A stretch of DNA of 64,000 bases from a bacterium (lineage in GTDB: Bacteria; Patescibacteriota; Minisyncoccia; Phycocordibacterales; Zambryskibacteraceae). Made by a program: the position numbers and the translations under genes. The notes beneath the pieces were generated by a model. The model was not told the origin of the DNA and did no database searches. It was given only the letters and a program-made list of their open reading frames with translations. Shown here piece after piece: positions 22,009 through 25,474 of this stretch; within the stretch, counting starts at the first letter, position 1; each line of letters starts with the position of its first letter. The stretch is taken from assembly GCA_030649135.1 (NCBI GenBank), contig JAUSGI010000008.1, positions 128,001 through 192,000 on the forward strand. The letters are read 5' to 3'.

Positions 22009-22041
22009 TAGGCTATTATAACCTACCCATAGTTAATATAG

Positions 22042-22112
22042 TGCGAGATGCGAGAATCGAACTCGCGCCCGATGCTTGGGAAGCACCAGTTCTGCCACTA
22101 AACTAATCTCGC
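22042..22112 (-). tRNA. tRNA-Gly (anticodon CCC)
   Basis: Hand-folded. Acceptor GCGAGAT/ATCTCGC, anticodon loop TTCCCAA and T-arm GCGAG-TTCGATT-CTCGC. Confidence 0.8.
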
Positions 22113-22113
22113 A

Positions 22114-22200
22114 TGGTGCCCGGGGTGGGCATCGAACCCACACGACCTTGCGGTCACGAAATTTTAAGTCTCGCGCGTATACCAATTCCGCCACCCGGGC
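22114..22200 (-). tRNA. tRNA-Leu (anticodon TAA), long variable arm, CCA encoded
   Basis: Hand-folded. Acceptor GCCCGGG/CCCGGGC, anticodon loop CTTAAAA, variable arm TGACCGCAAGGTCGTG and T-arm GTGGG-TTCGATG-CCCAC. Confidence 0.85.
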
Positions 22201-22275
22201 TGGAGGCGTAGGCGGGAATCGAACCCGCGCATATCGGTTTTGCAGACCGCCGCGTTTCCACTTCGCCACTACGCC
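22201..22275 (-). tRNA. tRNA-Cys (anticodon GCA)
   Basis: Hand-folded. Acceptor GGCGTAG/CTACGCC, anticodon stem CGGT/ACCG, anticodon loop CTGCAAA and T-arm GCGGG-TTCGATT-CCCGC. The 3' end abuts the tRNA-Leu 5' end with no spacer. Confidence 0.75.
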
Positions 22276-22392
22276 ATTGTCCAGCTAACTAACTTTTATA
22301 CATTATCATAATTGATAAATCATTGCTTTTTTGAAATACTGTACTCTTATACCCCGCTTCACCCCGCCATGGCGGGGCGAGACGGGGCAAGC

Positions 22393-22465
22393 GCGCCTAT
22401 AGCTCAGCTGGTAGAGCAGATCCCTCTTAAGGATAAGGTCGCAGGTTCGATCCCTGCTGGGCGCA
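22393..22465 (+). tRNA. tRNA-Lys (anticodon CTT)
   Basis: Hand-folded. Acceptor GCGCCTA/TGGGCGC, D-arm GCTC-AGCTGGTA-GAGC, anticodon loop CTCTTAA and T-arm GCAGG-TTCGATC-CCTGC. Confidence 0.8.
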
Positions 22466-22467
22466 CT

Positions 22468-22548
22468 GGGCGGGTGGTGAAATGGTAGACACGCCAGTTT
22501 TAGGAACTGGTGCCGCAAGGCATGGAGGTTCAAGTCCTCTCCCGCCCA
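22468..22548 (+). tRNA. tRNA-Leu (anticodon TAG), long variable arm
   Basis: Hand-folded. Acceptor GGGCGGG/CCCGCCC, anticodon stem CCAGT/ACTGG, anticodon loop TTTAGGA, variable arm TGCCGCAAGGCATG and T-arm GGAGG-TTCAAGT-CCTCT. Confidence 0.85.
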
Positions 22549-22616
22549 CAACAACATCTTTCCTTTTCTTCGATTTTTTGCTAAAATCAGCGATATAGTT
22601 AATCTAACAAAATAAT

Positions 22617-23555
22617 ATGAATCACCAAAAAGGGTTTATCAATATAGTGTATACGGTAGTAGTAGTTGCTCTGCTTATTGGAGCGGGAGCATACCTTACC
22701 ATCCGACAAATCAATAAACCGTATATTTCCCCTACCGCCACCACTACTCCTCCAGGCGCCACCACTACTCCTCCTACTCCACCGCCACCACCCGCACCAG
22801 GAGTTTGTACTGCCGATGTCAAACAATGTCCTAACGGCACTTACGTAAGCCGAAGTGGTCCTAATTGCACCTTCGCCGCTTGTCCATCTTCTTTGCCACA
22901 ACCACAATTCCAGCTCATCTCTATGCGTGAAGGAGAACGGGAAAGTTCGTTCCTGCTGGAAAGAATTTATACAGACCGCGTGACTGGTCTTAATTTCGGA
23001 GAATATCCGGTAGCGATGGAACAGGGCAATCCAGTCACTTTGCGTCTCGGTGAAGTCGTAAGCAACGGTTGTACTGTCACACTCACGCTTACCAAAATTG
23101 AAGGAAATGTCGCTACGTTTAGCAAGAAAACAGATTCCAGTCAGATTTGCCCGATTTGTCTTGCTCGCAATACGTTAATCGATACTCCTTCTGGTACAAT
23201 TCCCGTACAAGATTTGGAAAAAGGCATGGCTATTTGGACTCTAAACCGATTAGGCGAGCGTATCTCCGCTATTGTCGTAGAAACTACGAGAACTCCTGTA
23301 CCCCCGACCCATCAAGTGATTCATCTTGTTCTTAATGATGGCCGAGAAGTATTCGTATCCGGAGGACACCCAGTTACCAATGGGCAAAAAGTACAAGACC
23401 TCTTGGTCGGTGAAGTTTATGACGGCTCTTATGTATCGAGTGTAGAATCTATCCCCTACCGCGAGCAGGCTACATATGATGTCTTACCATCAGGCGAGAC
23501 CGGGTTCTATTGGGCTAACGGCATCTTACTTGACAGCACACTGAATCATAAGTGA
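22617..23555 (+). CDS. membrane-anchored Thr/Pro-rich, Cys-rich protein with a C-terminal Hint (bacterial intein-like) domain
   Basis: N-terminal TM helix, a TTTPPGATTTPPTPPPPP linker and a Cys-rich module. Hint blocks are present: CLARNTLIDTPSGTIPVQDL, SGGHPVTNG and TYDVLPSGETGFYWANGILLDS. Confidence 0.7.
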   Translation: MNHQKGFINIVYTVVVVALLIGAGAYLTIRQINKPYISPTATTTPPGATTTPPTPPPPPAPGVCTADVKQCPNGTYVSRSGPNCTFAACPSSLPQPQFQLISMREGERESSFLLERIYTDRVTGLNFGEYPVAMEQGNPVTLRLGEVVSNGCTVTLTLTKIEGNVATFSKKTDSSQICPICLARNTLIDTPSGTIPVQDLEKGMAIWTLNRLGERISAIVVETTRTPVPPTHQVIHLVLNDGREVFVSGGHPVTNGQKVQDLLVGEVYDGSYVSSVESIPYREQATYDVLPSGETGFYWANGILLDSTLNHK

Positions 23556-25474
23556 AGCAAGAAGAAAATAATATACTTGAAGGGATTGTACGCGTCACAG
23601 GTTCGGGTGTCGGCTATTTCCCTGTGCCAAATGCCGAAAATGACTTGGAAATCCAGCCGGAGAATCTAAGCGGCGCTCTGAATAGAGACAGGGTCAAAGT
23701 CGAGTCACTTCACACGGAAATCCTTGGCAGAATGCAGGCCAAAGTGGTGGATATCATAGAGCGCCATAAAACAGCCTTTGTGGGCACTCTGGAGAAGGCC
23801 GACGAGGGATTTTTCCTCGTGCCGGACGACAAGCGTATGTATCGGGATATTTTCGTACCAGAAGATAAAGTGCTGAAGGCCAAAGAGGGGGACAAAGTCC
23901 AAGTCAGATTGACCTTGTGGCCCGATACATCAAAGAGTCCGAAGGGAGAAGTGATTCGGGTGATAGGCCGAGCCGGTGAACACAATGCCGAAATGCTCGG
24001 TATTGTTTATGAGAGCGGGTTTGAAGTTGACTTCCCTGCCGAAGTGGAGCAAGAAGCCCAAGCATGGAAAGAAAAATACAAACAAGAAGATATGCTCAAA
24101 GACCGTAAGGACTTCCGGGAAACCACTACCTTTACCATTGACCCCGCAGATGCCAAGGACTTCGACGATGCTCTATCTTTTAAAATACTGCCAAACGGTG
24201 GCTGCGAGATTGGTATTCACATTGCGGATGTTTCTCATTTCGTAGTGGAAAAGACCGAACTCGATCGCGAGGCGCGCAACCGAGGCACTTCCATTTATCT
24301 CGTAGACCGTACTATCCCAATGCTTCCGGAAATACTTTCCAATGACCTCTGCTCCCTTAATGCCAATGAACCCAAATATGCTTTCTCGGCCGTCTTTGTG
24401 ATAGATAAAGAAGCCAAAGTCAAAGAACGCTGGTTCGGTAAAACACTCATCAAATCCGATAAGCGCTTCACCTACGAAGAAGCCCAAGAAATTATGGACC
24501 AGGATAAGGGAATATTTGCCGAAGAGCTTAAAACTTTGAATGCGCTCGCCAAAAAACTTCGTGAAGAGAGATTTAGAAATGGCGCCATTGATTTTGAAAC
24601 CGATGAAGTGAAGTTTGAACTTGACGATTTGGGCAAACCCATCCGAGTGTACAAGAAGGCGCGTAAAGATACCCAAAAACTCATAGAAGAATTCATGCTG
24701 TTGGCTAATCGCGAGGTAGCCACCCATATGCATACCGCTAATGATAAGAACAGCCGTGCCGCCTTCGTCTACCGCATTCACGATGCGCCGGACAGAGAAA
24801 AAATTGTGAACCTTGCCACTTTTGTCAAAGCTCTTGGCTTCGAGCTCAAGAATAAAGATGGAGAAACTACCGGTAGCGACATCGCCCGGATGTTAAGTTC
24901 GGTGGGTGGCACTCCCGCGGAAATGCTTATAAAAACTGCCGCTATCAGGTCAATGTCGAAAGCCATATATTCCACTTCCAACATCGGCCATTTTGGACTC
25001 GCTTTCGAATACTACACTCACTTCACCTCGCCTATCCGCCGTTACCCCGACTTAATGGTTCACCGCCTGCTCCTACGCTTCTTATTGAATGGTAAAATCG
25101 AGCAAGACGAAATTATCAAATATCAAAGACTCTGTGATGACTCAAGCGAGCGCGAGCTCGAGGCGGCAGAAGCGGAACGAGCTTCTATCAAATACAAACA
25201 GGTTGAATATATGCAGGAACATATCGGTGAAGAGTTTGACGCTATAGTCTCCGGCGTTTCGGAATGGGGCATTTATGTCGAAGAGATTAATACCAAGGCG
25301 GAAGGTATGGTCAAACTACGCGACATGAAAGATGATTTCTATGAGCTGAATGAGAAACTTTATGCCATCGTGGGCAAAAAAACCGGCAAGAAATATTCCC
25401 TAGGCGATAAAATCCGAGTCAAACTCGTCGCCTCCGACCCAGAAAGAAAGACTTTAGACTTCCAGTTTGTTTAA
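23552..25474 (+). CDS. rnr: ribonuclease R (RNB family 3'-5' exoribonuclease with C-terminal S1 domain)
   Basis: RNB signature HFGLAFEYYTHFTSPIRRYPDLMVHR, cold-shock-like N-terminal domains and a C-terminal S1 domain. Confidence 0.9.
   Translation: MKQEENNILEGIVRVTGSGVGYFPVPNAENDLEIQPENLSGALNRDRVKVESLHTEILGRMQAKVVDIIERHKTAFVGTLEKADEGFFLVPDDKRMYRDIFVPEDKVLKAKEGDKVQVRLTLWPDTSKSPKGEVIRVIGRAGEHNAEMLGIVYESGFEVDFPAEVEQEAQAWKEKYKQEDMLKDRKDFRETTTFTIDPADAKDFDDALSFKILPNGGCEIGIHIADVSHFVVEKTELDREARNRGTSIYLVDRTIPMLPEILSNDLCSLNANEPKYAFSAVFVIDKEAKVKERWFGKTLIKSDKRFTYEEAQEIMDQDKGIFAEELKTLNALAKKLREERFRNGAIDFETDEVKFELDDLGKPIRVYKKARKDTQKLIEEFMLLANREVATHMHTANDKNSRAAFVYRIHDAPDREKIVNLATFVKALGFELKNKDGETTGSDIARMLSSVGGTPAEMLIKTAAIRSMSKAIYSTSNIGHFGLAFEYYTHFTSPIRRYPDLMVHRLLLRFLLNGKIEQDEIIKYQRLCDDSSERELEAAEAERASIKYKQVEYMQEHIGEEFDAIVSGVSEWGIYVEEINTKAEGMVKLRDMKDDFYELNEKLYAIVGKKTGKKYSLGDKIRVKLVASDPERKTLDFQFV

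Follow-up and report, generated by a model that had tools for sequence, protein, structure and literature searches.

Background

The Hint domain is familiar from inteins, from BIL domains and from the processing domain of Hedgehog proteins. In Hog, the Hint module is by definition followed by a sterol- or adduct-recognition region (SRR or ARR; PMC2362128). BIL-B domains are described as cleaving rather than splicing, as acting at both flanks and as lacking similarity to intein block G (PMC4031507). A further group, associated with Burglin 2008 and with Dassa and Pietrokovski, includes Myxococcus MXAN_6253, Photorhabdus plu1731 and proteins of Serratia, Yersinia and Reinekea; its members have signal peptides, two conserved upstream cysteines and a terminal Hint-like domain, and have been classed as neither inteins, Hog nor BIL domains (PMC2362128). 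The same paper explicitly raises the question of where the eukaryotic terminal Hint forms, Hog and Vint, originated.

Here we describe a bacterial gene whose product is anchored at its N-terminus and ends in a Hint domain. It belongs to a large, hitherto undescribed family of ultra-small bacteria and several archaea, and our literature search found no paper tying Hint domains to CPR, Patescibacteria or Thaumarchaeota.

Results and discussion

Layout of the gene and its product

The gene is a real ORF with an ATG start and a TGA stop, encoding 312 amino acids (Table 1), and an identical protein is already present in NCBI as the MAG hypothetical protein P0001. When the six-frame translation of the window (the whole 64,000-nucleotide stretch of DNA analysed) was scanned with hmmsearch, this ORF alone was recovered as a family copy. 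tRNAs lie upstream of it and a putative RNase R ORF lies downstream.

Table 1. Features of the gene and of the encoded protein
Feature	Coordinates in the window	Strand	Basis
Whole ORF: anchor, linker, Cys-rich module, beta-sandwich cargo, terminal Hint	22617..23555	+	ORF list and sequence
N-terminal signal-anchor, residues 1-32, MNHQKGF followed by INIVYTVVVVALLIGAGAYL	22617..22712	+	AF2 helix 5-32
Thr/Pro-rich disordered linker, residues ~36-62	22722..22802	+	Read from sequence
Four-Cys module, residues 64-90 (C64, C71, C84, C89)	22806..22886	+	Family consensus, AF2
Conserved beta-sandwich cargo domain, 85 aa, residues 96-180	22902..23156	+	AF2, pLDDT >90 over most of its length
Junction Cys178-Pro179-Ile180 / Cys181	23148..23159	+	Family conservation, stops of Hint-less homologues
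Hint (Hedgehog/intein) domain, residues 181-312, protein-terminal	23157..23552	+	Sequence and fold
Block B, Ser248-Gly-Gly-His251, counterpart of intein T-x-x-H	23358..23369	+	Aligns with S-E-E-H of the gp41-1 intein
Blocks F/G, residues 286-309, TYDVLPSGETGFYWANGILLDSTL	23472..23543	+	Alignment to CatC and gp41-1 inteins

The first-pass annotation had recognised a hydrophobic anchor, a Thr/Pro-rich linker and a small Cys-rich module, and all three are borne out, the anchor by a helix in the AF2 model. The anchor opens with a conserved M-x(0-8)-[KR]-G-F; among the 120 best homologues, 59 share its [KR]GF part. A prepilin-type signal gained no support: the N-methylation model TIGR02532 gave no match at E<=10 and there is no Glu at +5. 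We infer the topology of the protein; the charges to either side of the TM helix do not decide it. The linker varies in length and sequence among relatives, and residues 31-60 have pLDDT values of 46-60. The four-Cys module, which has no Pfam match in a scan of the protein, reads C-x6-C-P-x-G-x(8)-G-x2-C-x-F-x2-C-P here and CxxxxxxCPDGxxxxxxGxxCxF in the family consensus; it is modelled with short strands at 68-70 and 76-80 (pLDDT 84-90). Relatives carry zero to four copies of it, with even cysteine counts throughout. The cargo domain that follows, overlooked by the first-pass annotation, is the true conserved partner of the Hint domain; it holds the invariant Cys152 and ends in Cys178-Pro179-Ile180. 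The predicted scissile bond lies between the codons at 23154-23156 (Ile) and 23157-23159 (Cys).

The terminal 132 residues are a Hint domain, on the evidence of both sequence and fold. A C-terminal Hint domain had already been proposed, with its length given as 125 amino acids. Hint_2 (PF13403), which we take to be equivalent to BIL-B, is the sole Pfam family to reach threshold in this protein, yet its score of 28.4 bits (E=2.4e-6) is no higher than the gathering cutoff, itself 28.4, and the alignment covers only positions 1-81 of the 147 in the profile. The Hint HMM search suggested in the first-pass annotation is thus borderline for the single sequence, whereas 108 of 109 relatives match the model (E<=0.01). 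Our assignment draws its weight from the family evidence and from the fold. A family profile matches the PDB consensus intein over blocks B-G (E=1.4e-7), and the C-terminal half, with its block F/G-like features, is closer to true inteins than to Hint_2. Structure prediction, likewise suggested beforehand, returned a Hint fold (pLDDT 87.6), fold comparison identified the beta-fold of the HINT superfamily, and the block A nucleophile and block B T/S-x-x-H of that superfamily are represented by Cys181, Ser248 and His251. The domain opens with CLARNTLIDTPSG at residue 181, carries SGGHP at 248 and TYDVLPSGETGFYWANGILLDS at 286-307, and ends in ...LDSTLNHK, three residues beyond the last conserved Hint position; the block motifs and the chain end quoted by the first-pass annotation are all present. 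The last strand of the AF2 model covers residues 303-306.

Residues kept and residues lost

We counted residue conservation over 229 distinct family sequences from bacteria and archaea. Cys181, Leu182, Ser248, His251 and Asp288 each occur in 229 of 229, and the residues of the N-terminal acyl shift (Cys181, Ser248-x-x-His251, Asp288) are therefore all kept. Aligned with the inteins CatC and gp41-1, the domain has its block-F Asp in Asp288, and places Gly296 (228/229), Asp306 and Ser307 at the intein His, His and Asn positions and Thr308 (223/229) at +1; Leu309 follows in 217 of the sequences. Position 306 is Gly in 133 sequences, Asp in 41, Lys in 24 and Ala in 12. The residues of C-terminal cleavage have thus been swapped out (Gly296, Gly/Asp306, Ser307), and the missing terminal His-Asn, already remarked on from this sequence alone, is a family trait, with Ser in place of the terminal Asn in 224 of 229 relatives. 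The nucleophile, numbered Cys187 in the first-pass annotation, is in fact Cys181. That the complete N-S acyl shift set is retained and the residues of the other splicing steps are lost argues for a selected activity rather than decay.

We consider it probable that the protein is an anchored ectodomain whose terminal Hint domain cuts itself off in cis, a single time. It would be a type-II-like anchored extracytoplasmic protein, with a disulfide-bonded ectodomain (Cys-rich module and cargo) followed directly by Hint. Cys181, the only unpaired cysteine, would attack the Ile180 carbonyl in an N-S acyl shift aided by Ser248, His251 and Asp288, and the resulting thioester would then react with water or a small nucleophile, presumably being hydrolysed. 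The free Hint domain (181-312, about 14.5 kDa) would be released and the anchored cargo left ending in ...Cys178-Pro179-Ile180-COOH. C-terminal cleavage and splicing would be absent, as block-F His, penultimate His and terminal Asn are replaced and nothing lies downstream. Cleavage is what we infer from conservation alone.

The same counts bear on whether the Hint fold might be catalytically silent, serving as a structural or binding module in a protein that stays intact. A single-sequence Pfam score that only just reaches threshold, over half of the model, would suit such a module, but the invariance of every N-S acyl shift residue in 229 sequences, and the truncated homologues that end precisely at the scissile bond (see below), make it very improbable.

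Absence of a C-extein

None of the 120 best homologues has a C-extein. After the conserved Ser-Thr-Leu the chain continues for 0-17 residues, usually 1-4 and most often one; a single exception among these 120, P0029, apparently terminates ahead of Ser-Thr-Leu. Tails this short rule out a C-extein and, with it, splicing. Inteins are insertions in a host protein and are followed by a C-extein that starts with Cys, Ser or Thr; here Thr308 stands at +1, but the tail is short. No homing endonuclease is present. The next ORF in the window looks complete (640 amino acids; putatively RNase R, as read from the ORF itself), and the genes 3' of family members differ between genomes. These short tails and differing downstream genes exclude a frameshift followed by a real extein, which the first-pass annotation had named as grounds for refuting its reading.

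Could the domain nevertheless be a canonical or degenerate intein, or a BIL type A domain, capable of splicing or of cutting both of its flanks, its C-extein having been frameshifted off or placed in the next ORF? The C-terminal half is indeed more intein-like than Hint_2-like, and Thr308 occupies the +1 position. Against this, the terminal position does not hold Asn, Gln or Asp (it is Ser in 224 of 229), no C-extein occurs among the 120 best homologues, downstream genes are unrelated and variable, there is no homing endonuclease, and homologues without the Hint domain lack the TLx tail described in the next section. We give this explanation practically no credence.

Homologues that stop at the predicted scissile bond

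The predicted self-removal of the Hint domain can be set beside relatives that never encode one. Our sample comprised 258 family proteins, drawn from 120 sequence-search hits and 140 representatives of clusters at 50% identity. About 49 of the 258 terminate straight after Cys-Pro-x; by a stricter tally, 44 of 237 complete cargo domains end at Cys-Pro-x or within one residue of it, and three of these ~44 carry one extra Thr (CPIT). The Hint-less ends read ...CPx, without the TLx that splicing would leave (...CPI-TLx). In a neighbour-joining tree, Hint-less forms are scattered among Hint-bearing relatives, and the nearest relative of a Hint-less form often bears the domain; the Fitch minimum on this tree is 32 changes among three end states (Hint, CPx-stop and short tail).

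Since many homologues end exactly at ...CPI, we considered an in-frame TGA standing in place of Cys1. Selenocysteine at the nucleophile was dropped: at three independent loci (L004, L006/L007 and L008) the DNA confirmed that the stops are TAA, with unrelated DNA beyond and no Hint sequence in any frame. Contig truncation was also dismissed, as the ends are exact and recurrent (~44), with other genes or a terminator-like hairpin beyond them.

The existence of Hint-less homologues that stop at Cys-Pro-x argues that the mature product, too, would end at Ile180, the predicted scissile bond. Together with the invariant Cys181, Ser248, His251 and Asp288, these ends support the earlier suggestion of N-terminal autoprocessing over splicing.

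Cysteine pairing and location

Among 141 complete proteins, the N-terminal fragment has an even number of cysteines in 134 and the Hint domain exactly one in all 141. The Hint-less forms follow the same rule (39 of the 44 are even) and keep both Cys178 and its putative partner Cys152. This parity points to an extracellular cargo held by disulfides, with Cys181 as the one free cysteine. In subfamily B, corresponding insertions lie beside both Cys152 and Cys178, which lends weak support to the proximity of the two residues. A Cys152-Cys178 disulfide probably exists and would hold the junction in place. The N-terminal anchor, the cysteine parity of the N-terminal fragment and the partner domains found in relatives, which are of extracellular types (TIG, PKD, PG_binding_1, dockerin and Kazal), support a surface location, as the first-pass annotation had supposed.

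Cys178 and Pro179 each occur in 227 of 229 sequences. The pairing of Cys178 matters for a different scheme, in which a Cys178-Cys181 disulfide within C-P-x-C would block the acyl shift until conditions become reducing. A disulfide between Cys(-3) and Cys1 does control inteins, both in an engineered 'redox trap' and in the native Pab MoaA intein (review PMC3922620). The C-P-x-C spacing, found in those 227 sequences whichever cargo domain precedes it, and the extracytoplasmic location of the protein, where disulfides form, would accommodate such a gate. The parity counts, however, fit a Cys178 paired within the cargo and a free Cys181, the Hint-less forms retain Cys178 along with Cys152, and the subfamily B insertions weakly favour the proximity of these two. 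Redox-gated autoprocessing thus seems quite unlikely; on cysteine parity we judge a Cys178-Cys181 trap unlikely as the resting state, and transient disulfide exchange may occur.

Family range and comparison with known Hint systems

Family members occur in CPR bacteria, Thaumarchaeota, DPANN, Methanoperedens, Chloroflexi and Acidimicrobiia. One of the thaumarchaeal members, a 434-aa protein, lies on the complete chromosome of the cultivated Ca. Nitrosotalea devanaterra (LN890280.1, about 1,246,677-1,247,981), and Hint domains of CPR bacteria and Thaumarchaeota are 45-60% identical. We found no conserved neighbourhood or operon partner at the loci compared (the neighbours at L001-L003, L004 and L009 are unrelated). 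A mobile-element origin was dropped, there being no relatives in plasmid, phage and IMG/VR collections and no GC anomaly. The CPI|CL...STL module also trails at least four other types of cargo and, to judge from these sequences, behaves as a portable terminal cassette.

Among described systems, Hedgehog shares with our protein the overall plan of a secreted chain that ends in a Hint module. In contrast to Hog, no SRR or ARR follows the Hint domain, neither this protein nor its relatives match PF01079, sequence identity is only 15%, the cargo bears no relation to that of Hedgehog and the host is a prokaryote. The family shares with BIL-B (Hint_2) the lack of His-Asn, the expectation of cleavage over splicing and an occurrence in secreted or surface proteins, but differs in its F/G-like C-terminal half (E=1.4e-7) and in having no C-flank. 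The group associated with Burglin and with Dassa and Pietrokovski, compared by description only, has the same layout (anchor or signal, terminal Hint, two upstream cysteines, here Cys152 and Cys178); its members come from Proteobacteria and Myxobacteria, and motifs A and B alone were recognised in them, whereas F/G is clear in the present family, and none of our named sequence-search matches came from the genera of that group. Class 1 mini-inteins (gp41-1, NpuDnaB and the consensus 'Cat') have a terminal Asn (or Gln/Asp) after His, a C-extein and an insertion site in a host protein; our family has none of these, and carries Gly, Asp or Lys at 306 followed by Ser307. Unlike Vint, the vWA-Hint of protists, the protein has no vWA domain upstream, and its match to that model is below the gathering threshold. 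BIL type A and PT-HINT combine a C-terminal His-Asn with a downstream domain, often a toxin, and both are absent here: no toxin domain follows, the PT-HINT match is below the gathering threshold, and just two of 109 relatives match that model, weakly. The family is therefore a variant of the known Hint mechanism, not new in kind, and its mechanism is expected rather than surprising.

The likeness to Hedgehog raises the question of whether the thioester is passed to a specific acceptor, in the manner of a 'self-sortase'. A specific nucleophile would take the Ile180 thioester, attaching the cargo by its C-terminus as Hint leaves; candidates are the head group of a lipid, an amine of the cell wall or S-layer or, these organisms often being episymbiotic, a group on the surface of the host cell. 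The very strong conservation of Hint across bacteria and archaea suggests a task beyond self-removal, CPR and DPANN lineages that live attached to surfaces are over-represented in the family, and Asp241, aligned by eye, presumably corresponds to the Asp in the 'HTDGG' turn of Hedgehog. Yet the chain ends 0-17 residues past the Hint fold, leaving no adduct-recognition (SRR/ARR-like) region, and no conserved neighbour gene points to an acceptor or partner. In addition, ~44 homologues without Hint have a plain ...CPx carboxyl terminus, so an adduct is not essential for cargo function. The first-pass annotation had allowed for transfer of the N-terminal part; we found no specific evidence in its favour and think it unlikely.

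Self-removal remains our preferred reading. The Hint domain is under strong purifying selection, perhaps stronger than a domain that simply falls off would call for, which hints at an additional role, be it in ligation, regulation, folding or export.

Conclusions

This large and sharply defined prokaryotic family has a Hedgehog-type arrangement, a secreted cargo followed by a terminal Hint domain. It keeps the catalytic set for N-terminal cleavage only, together with a fixed Cys-Pro-Ile|Cys-Leu junction, and its Hint-less members provide natural controls. As a speculative and rather improbable extension, the CPI|CL...STL cassette would be a prokaryotic, enzyme-free counterpart of Hedgehog processing and of sortase, using its thioester to ligate diverse surface cargos of CPR, DPANN and ammonia-oxidising archaea to a nucleophile of the envelope or the host cell. 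If this were true, the nearly invariant Ser307-Thr308-Leu309, along with the Cys-Pro-Ile junction and its disulfide staple, would tune the choice of acceptor, and the Hint-less ...CPI forms would be soluble or unattached versions. The 217-amino-acid core, with its single free cysteine, is a small and testable system for the role of prokaryotic terminal Hint domains, and the family could supply compact N-cleaving tags.

A Hint domain supported by its family

The first-pass annotation had described the 312-residue protein studied here (the Hint protein) as ending in a Hint-like domain. All the sequence strings it quoted are present in the protein, and the block-A cysteine it placed at residue 187 is actually Cys181. 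Taken singly, the protein gives borderline profile evidence: the Pfam Hint_2 model (PF13403) matches with an E-value of 2.4e-6 and 28.4 bits, a score that only equals the gathering cutoff, over profile positions 1-81 of 147, and both Vint (E = 0.021) and TIGR01445 intein_Nterm (E = 0.049) fall below threshold. Evidence at the family level removes the doubt over this assignment. When 5.8 billion clustered proteins were searched, 765 homologues were returned; Hint_2 matches 108 of 109 aligned family members and Vint matches 34. The family profile also matches the C-terminal half of the consensus intein 6dsl_B (PDB; E = 1.4e-7) and the whole gp41-1 intein (E = 0.04), so that both halves of the domain are supported. 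An AlphaFold2 model based on the family alignment has a mean pLDDT of 87.6, with values above 90 across nearly all of residues 100-310. The Hint call itself is not new, since NCBI already labels some members 'Hint domain-containing protein'.

Catalytic residues and terminal position

We evaluated conservation over 229 distinct Hint-bearing sequences from the protein searches and 80 genome loci. Cys181, Leu182, Ser248, His251, Asp288 and Tyr298 are invariant. In alignments with gp41-1 and CatC, Ser248-x-x-His251 falls on intein block B (S/T-x-x-H) and Asp288 on the block-F Asp in 'Y-D-L', where block names follow established intein nomenclature. The absence of a terminal His-Asn reported earlier is borne out by the same alignments: the penultimate-His position (306) holds Gly, Asp, Lys or Ala and the terminal-Asn position holds Ser307 (224/229), followed by Thr308 at +1 (223/229) and Leu309 (217/229). 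Gly296 (228/229) stands at what we take, from our own block-F alignment, to be the place of the block-F His. As aligned, the positions serving intein C-terminal cleavage are all replaced in the family. An inactive Hint fold is, in our estimate, very improbable.

Among the best 120 of the 765 homologues, the chain ends 0-17 residues after Ser-Thr-Leu, most commonly after one; one homologue, P0029, appears to end ahead of this motif. A frameshift followed by a genuine extein, which would have changed the interpretation, was not found. Given the conserved catalytic set, the replaced C-terminal residues and the short tails, we read the domain as always terminal, with the N-S acyl-shift machinery present and that for asparagine cyclisation absent. 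These sequence features exclude an intein or a BIL-A domain and leave no room for a Hedgehog-type sterol or adduct-recognition region. That the Hint domain is so strongly conserved would suit transfer of the cargo to an acceptor in the manner of Hedgehog, but such a transfer is made unlikely by the lack of an adduct-recognition region and by homologues that have no Hint domain.

A conserved cargo and its Hint-less homologues

In the family, the conserved unit extends beyond the Hint domain and takes in residues ~96-312; the first-pass annotation had overlooked both the beta-sandwich cargo domain and its junction. The cargo ends with Cys178-Pro179-Ile180, directly before Cys181; Cys178 and Pro179 are each found in 227/229 sequences and Cys152 is invariant. 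With a cargo-only profile, we retrieved 210 proteins from 1.84 billion representative proteins. In most of them a Hint domain follows the cargo; about 49 have their stop immediately behind Cys-Pro-x (a stricter tally counts 44 whose end lies there or no more than one residue away, three of them as CPIT), and about 20 lack Hint and run on for only 4-18 residues as 'CPIC-W-x-Q...'. The three CPIT proteins (P0163, P0169, P0190) are related, and end one residue past the usual stop with Thr replacing Cys1. Proteins of the CPIC+tail type (P0129 as well as P0127, P0128, P0130, P0141, P0143, P0150, P0155, P0171 and others) bear 'NVTEDSRCPSDVxCIWxGQ' in their N-terminal modules.

Three of the homologues ending in CPI (P0134, P0193 and P0140; see table) share their anchor, Cys-rich module and beta-sandwich cargo with the Hint protein, and stop where Cys1 of the Hint domain would be. 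In these three independent loci, the stop is followed by an unrelated gene, non-coding DNA or a terminator-like hairpin, and no Hint sequence occurs downstream in any frame. The exact ...CPI ends had prompted us to consider a TGA recoded as selenocysteine at the nucleophile; this was rejected, as the stops in the three loci are TAA with no Hint downstream.

Forms that stop at Cys-Pro-x are present in both cargo sequence subfamilies and their nearest relatives are often Hint-bearing; on a neighbor-joining tree that is admittedly weak, parsimony needs a minimum of 32 changes between the three end states. By their sequences, these homologues amount to natural 'pre-cleaved' versions. Hint has been lost repeatedly, and exactly at the predicted scissile bond; of the evidence available, this points most strongly to a mature product of the full-length proteins that ends at residue -1, and also to a plain carboxyl terminus being functional. 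Hint-less ends do not carry the ...CPI-TLx that splicing would leave, which argues against splicing; a true intein, already at odds with the missing His-Asn and C-extein, is extremely improbable. The N-terminal autoprocessing predicted earlier in preference to splicing thus agrees with the invariant acyl-shift residues, the replaced C-terminal residues and the ...CPx ends.

Cysteine parity and a probable extracytoplasmic location

That this is a membrane-anchored surface protein, as first proposed, is supported by three features. The model shows an N-terminal hydrophobic helix of 20 residues, then a disordered Thr/Pro-rich linker. Relatives swap or extend this part with TIG, PKD, PG_binding_1, dockerin, Kazal or more Cys-rich modules, all extracellular-type. 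Finally, the number of cysteines ahead of Cys1 is even in 134 of 141 complete Hint-bearing proteins, while Cys1 is the only cysteine of the Hint domain in all 141. Counts are also even in 39/44 proteins stopping at Cys-Pro-x and odd in 19/21 CPIC+tail proteins, so the extra cysteine of the latter may be free. Read most simply, these counts point to a cargo that is oxidised and extracytoplasmic, with Cys178 disulfide-bonded inside it and Cys181 as the lone free thiol. The partner of Cys178 is most likely the invariant Cys152, whose neighbourhood fits, since insertions in subfamily B adjoin both residues. A C-P-x-C motif could alternatively gate the reaction by redox state, and such a 'redox trap' is known in an engineered DnaE intein and the native Pab MoaA intein (PMC3922620). 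Cysteine parity makes a resting Cys178-Cys181 bond less likely, and we hold redox gating to be quite unlikely.

The N terminus (MNHQKGF) resembles a prepilin-type (class III) G/F cleavage site without Glu+5, and has no TIGR02532 match. Its motif followed by a hydrophobic helix occurs in 59 of the best 120 homologues and in 1/166 ORFs of the window, the Hint protein; it may be a processing site instead of a plain anchor. The four-Cys module is present in 0-4 copies per family member, with or without Hint (in tandem in P0193, L087 and others), and has no match in the Pfam copy searched. Newer Pfam accessions, PF27023 and PF27854, are listed for some relatives.

Features of the window and of relatives' loci (a slash in a junction marks the predicted scissile bond)
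Feature	Location	Strand	Remarks
tRNA cluster, five genes	22041-22549	both	5' of Hint protein ORF; two divergent groups; minus: Gly-CCC, Leu-TAA, Cys-GCA; plus: Lys-CTT, Leu-TAG
Hint protein ORF	22617-23555	+	ATG start, 312 aa
N-terminal MNHQKGF	22617-22640		M-x(0-8)-[KR]-G-F, then hydrophobic helix
Four-Cys module	22806-22886		C-x6-CPDG-x(6-8)-G-x2-C-x-F-x2-CP
Putative RNase R ORF	23552-25474		3' of Hint protein ORF; 640 aa; possible GTG start at 23552
P0134, CPI-stop homologue	L004 3001-3519		TAA stop
P0193, CPI-stop homologue	L006 563-1171		TAA stop
P0140, CPI-stop homologue	L008 134-1003		TAA stop
P0129, CPIC+tail protein	L009 4001-5110
Ca. Nitrosotalea devanaterra protein	L040 2344-3648		LN890280.1, complete chromosome; 434 aa, secreted, cargo+Hint core
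Polytopic membrane protein with Hint cassette	L084 1528-3585		~680 aa, Woesebacteria MAG; junction GRKP/CL

Genomic context and distribution

The tRNA cluster ends 67 nt upstream of the Hint protein ORF. In the gap separating the ATG from the last tRNA, we found no sigma-70-like promoter; read-through from the tRNA transcript may therefore be how the ORF is transcribed. Downstream, the GTG of an ORF that we take to encode RNase R overlaps the TGA stop (GTGA, 23552-23555), which suggests co-transcription or translational coupling; this pairing is not kept in other genomes, and the relatives' loci have no conserved gene neighbourhood. The GC content of the ORF is that of its surroundings. Rfam detected only tRNAs in the window and the family HMM no second copy. 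NCBI holds an identical protein (P0001), a hypothetical protein from a bacterial MAG.

When one genome was scanned for each GTDB species, 166 relatives were found. Many are CPR/Patescibacteria (Staskawicz-, Wildermuth-, Buchanan-, Zambryski-, Terry-, Levy-, Curtiss-, Woese-, Morani-, Peregrini- and Peribacteria); others are archaeal (Nitrosopumilaceae, Nitrosarchaeum, Ca. Nitrosotalea devanaterra, Methanoperedens, Methanosarcinales, Woesearchaeota, Micrarchaeota) or belong to Ilumatobacteraceae/Acidimicrobiales and Chloroflexi. Plasmid, phage and IMG/VR collections yielded none. Core identity of the CPR query is 40-51% with archaeal proteins (46% over residues 96-312 for that of Ca. Nitrosotalea devanaterra) versus 56-60% with its closest CPR relatives. 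A single genome can carry two paralogues (L016 and L026; L042 and L077).

A different cargo precedes the same Hint cassette in 25 of 80 retained loci, among them a second recurrent cargo that is Cys-rich (~20 Cys), ending 'CQLKGYxRxCPI/CL' (L053, L060, L062, L064, L066, L067, L072, L074, L075, L078, L082), an alpha/beta cargo 'TELKYQL...FCDPDYYP...' in Chloroflexi, Methanoperedens and CPR (L071, L077, L080, L085), a TIG-containing protein and a polytopic membrane protein. The Cys-Pro-Ile/Cys-Leu junction is kept in 78/80 loci; the polytopic protein, without Cys at -3, is one of the two exceptions.

Predicted processing and relation to known Hint families

The protein is probably exported, anchored and freed of its Hint domain by Cys181, leaving a ...Cys-Pro-Ile carboxyl end. 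The analysis itself shows the motifs and fold, the terminal position of the domain, the truncated homologues and the cysteine parity; the cleavage, what triggers it and what becomes of the thioester are inferred. In this course of events, the exported protein would be held by its N-terminal helix while the cargo folds and oxidises. Cys181 would then attack the Ile180 carbonyl, aided by Ser248, His251 and Asp288, and the thioester would be hydrolysed or thiolysed; the Hint domain would depart and the cargo stay.

Judged by its architecture, this predicted autoprocessing domain would function as the Hog domain of Hedgehog does, or as a BIL domain that only cleaves. It lacks defining features of each named Hint subfamily: the His-Asn and C-extein of inteins and BIL-A, the SRR/ARR of Hog domains, the downstream toxin domain of PT-HINT and the vWA domain of Vint. 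Of the Hint_2/BIL-B model, only the N-terminal half is matched, and the C-terminal half of the domain resembles intein blocks F/G. Among published descriptions, the nearest is a short passage by Burglin (2008), citing Dassa and Pietrokovski, on secreted bacterial proteins that end in a Hint-like domain preceded by two conserved cysteines and come from Myxococcus, Photorhabdus, Serratia, Yersinia and Reinekea (PMC2362128). In the literature searched, neither the signature of the family nor its cargo domain was described, and the same holds for the exactly truncated variants and the combined CPR and archaeal distribution.

The first-pass observation is therefore confirmed and its interpretation supported, with one residue number corrected and a cargo domain added. 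We consider the finding of moderate interest; Ca. Nitrosotalea devanaterra, a cultivated ammonia-oxidising archaeon, would be tractable for testing processing.
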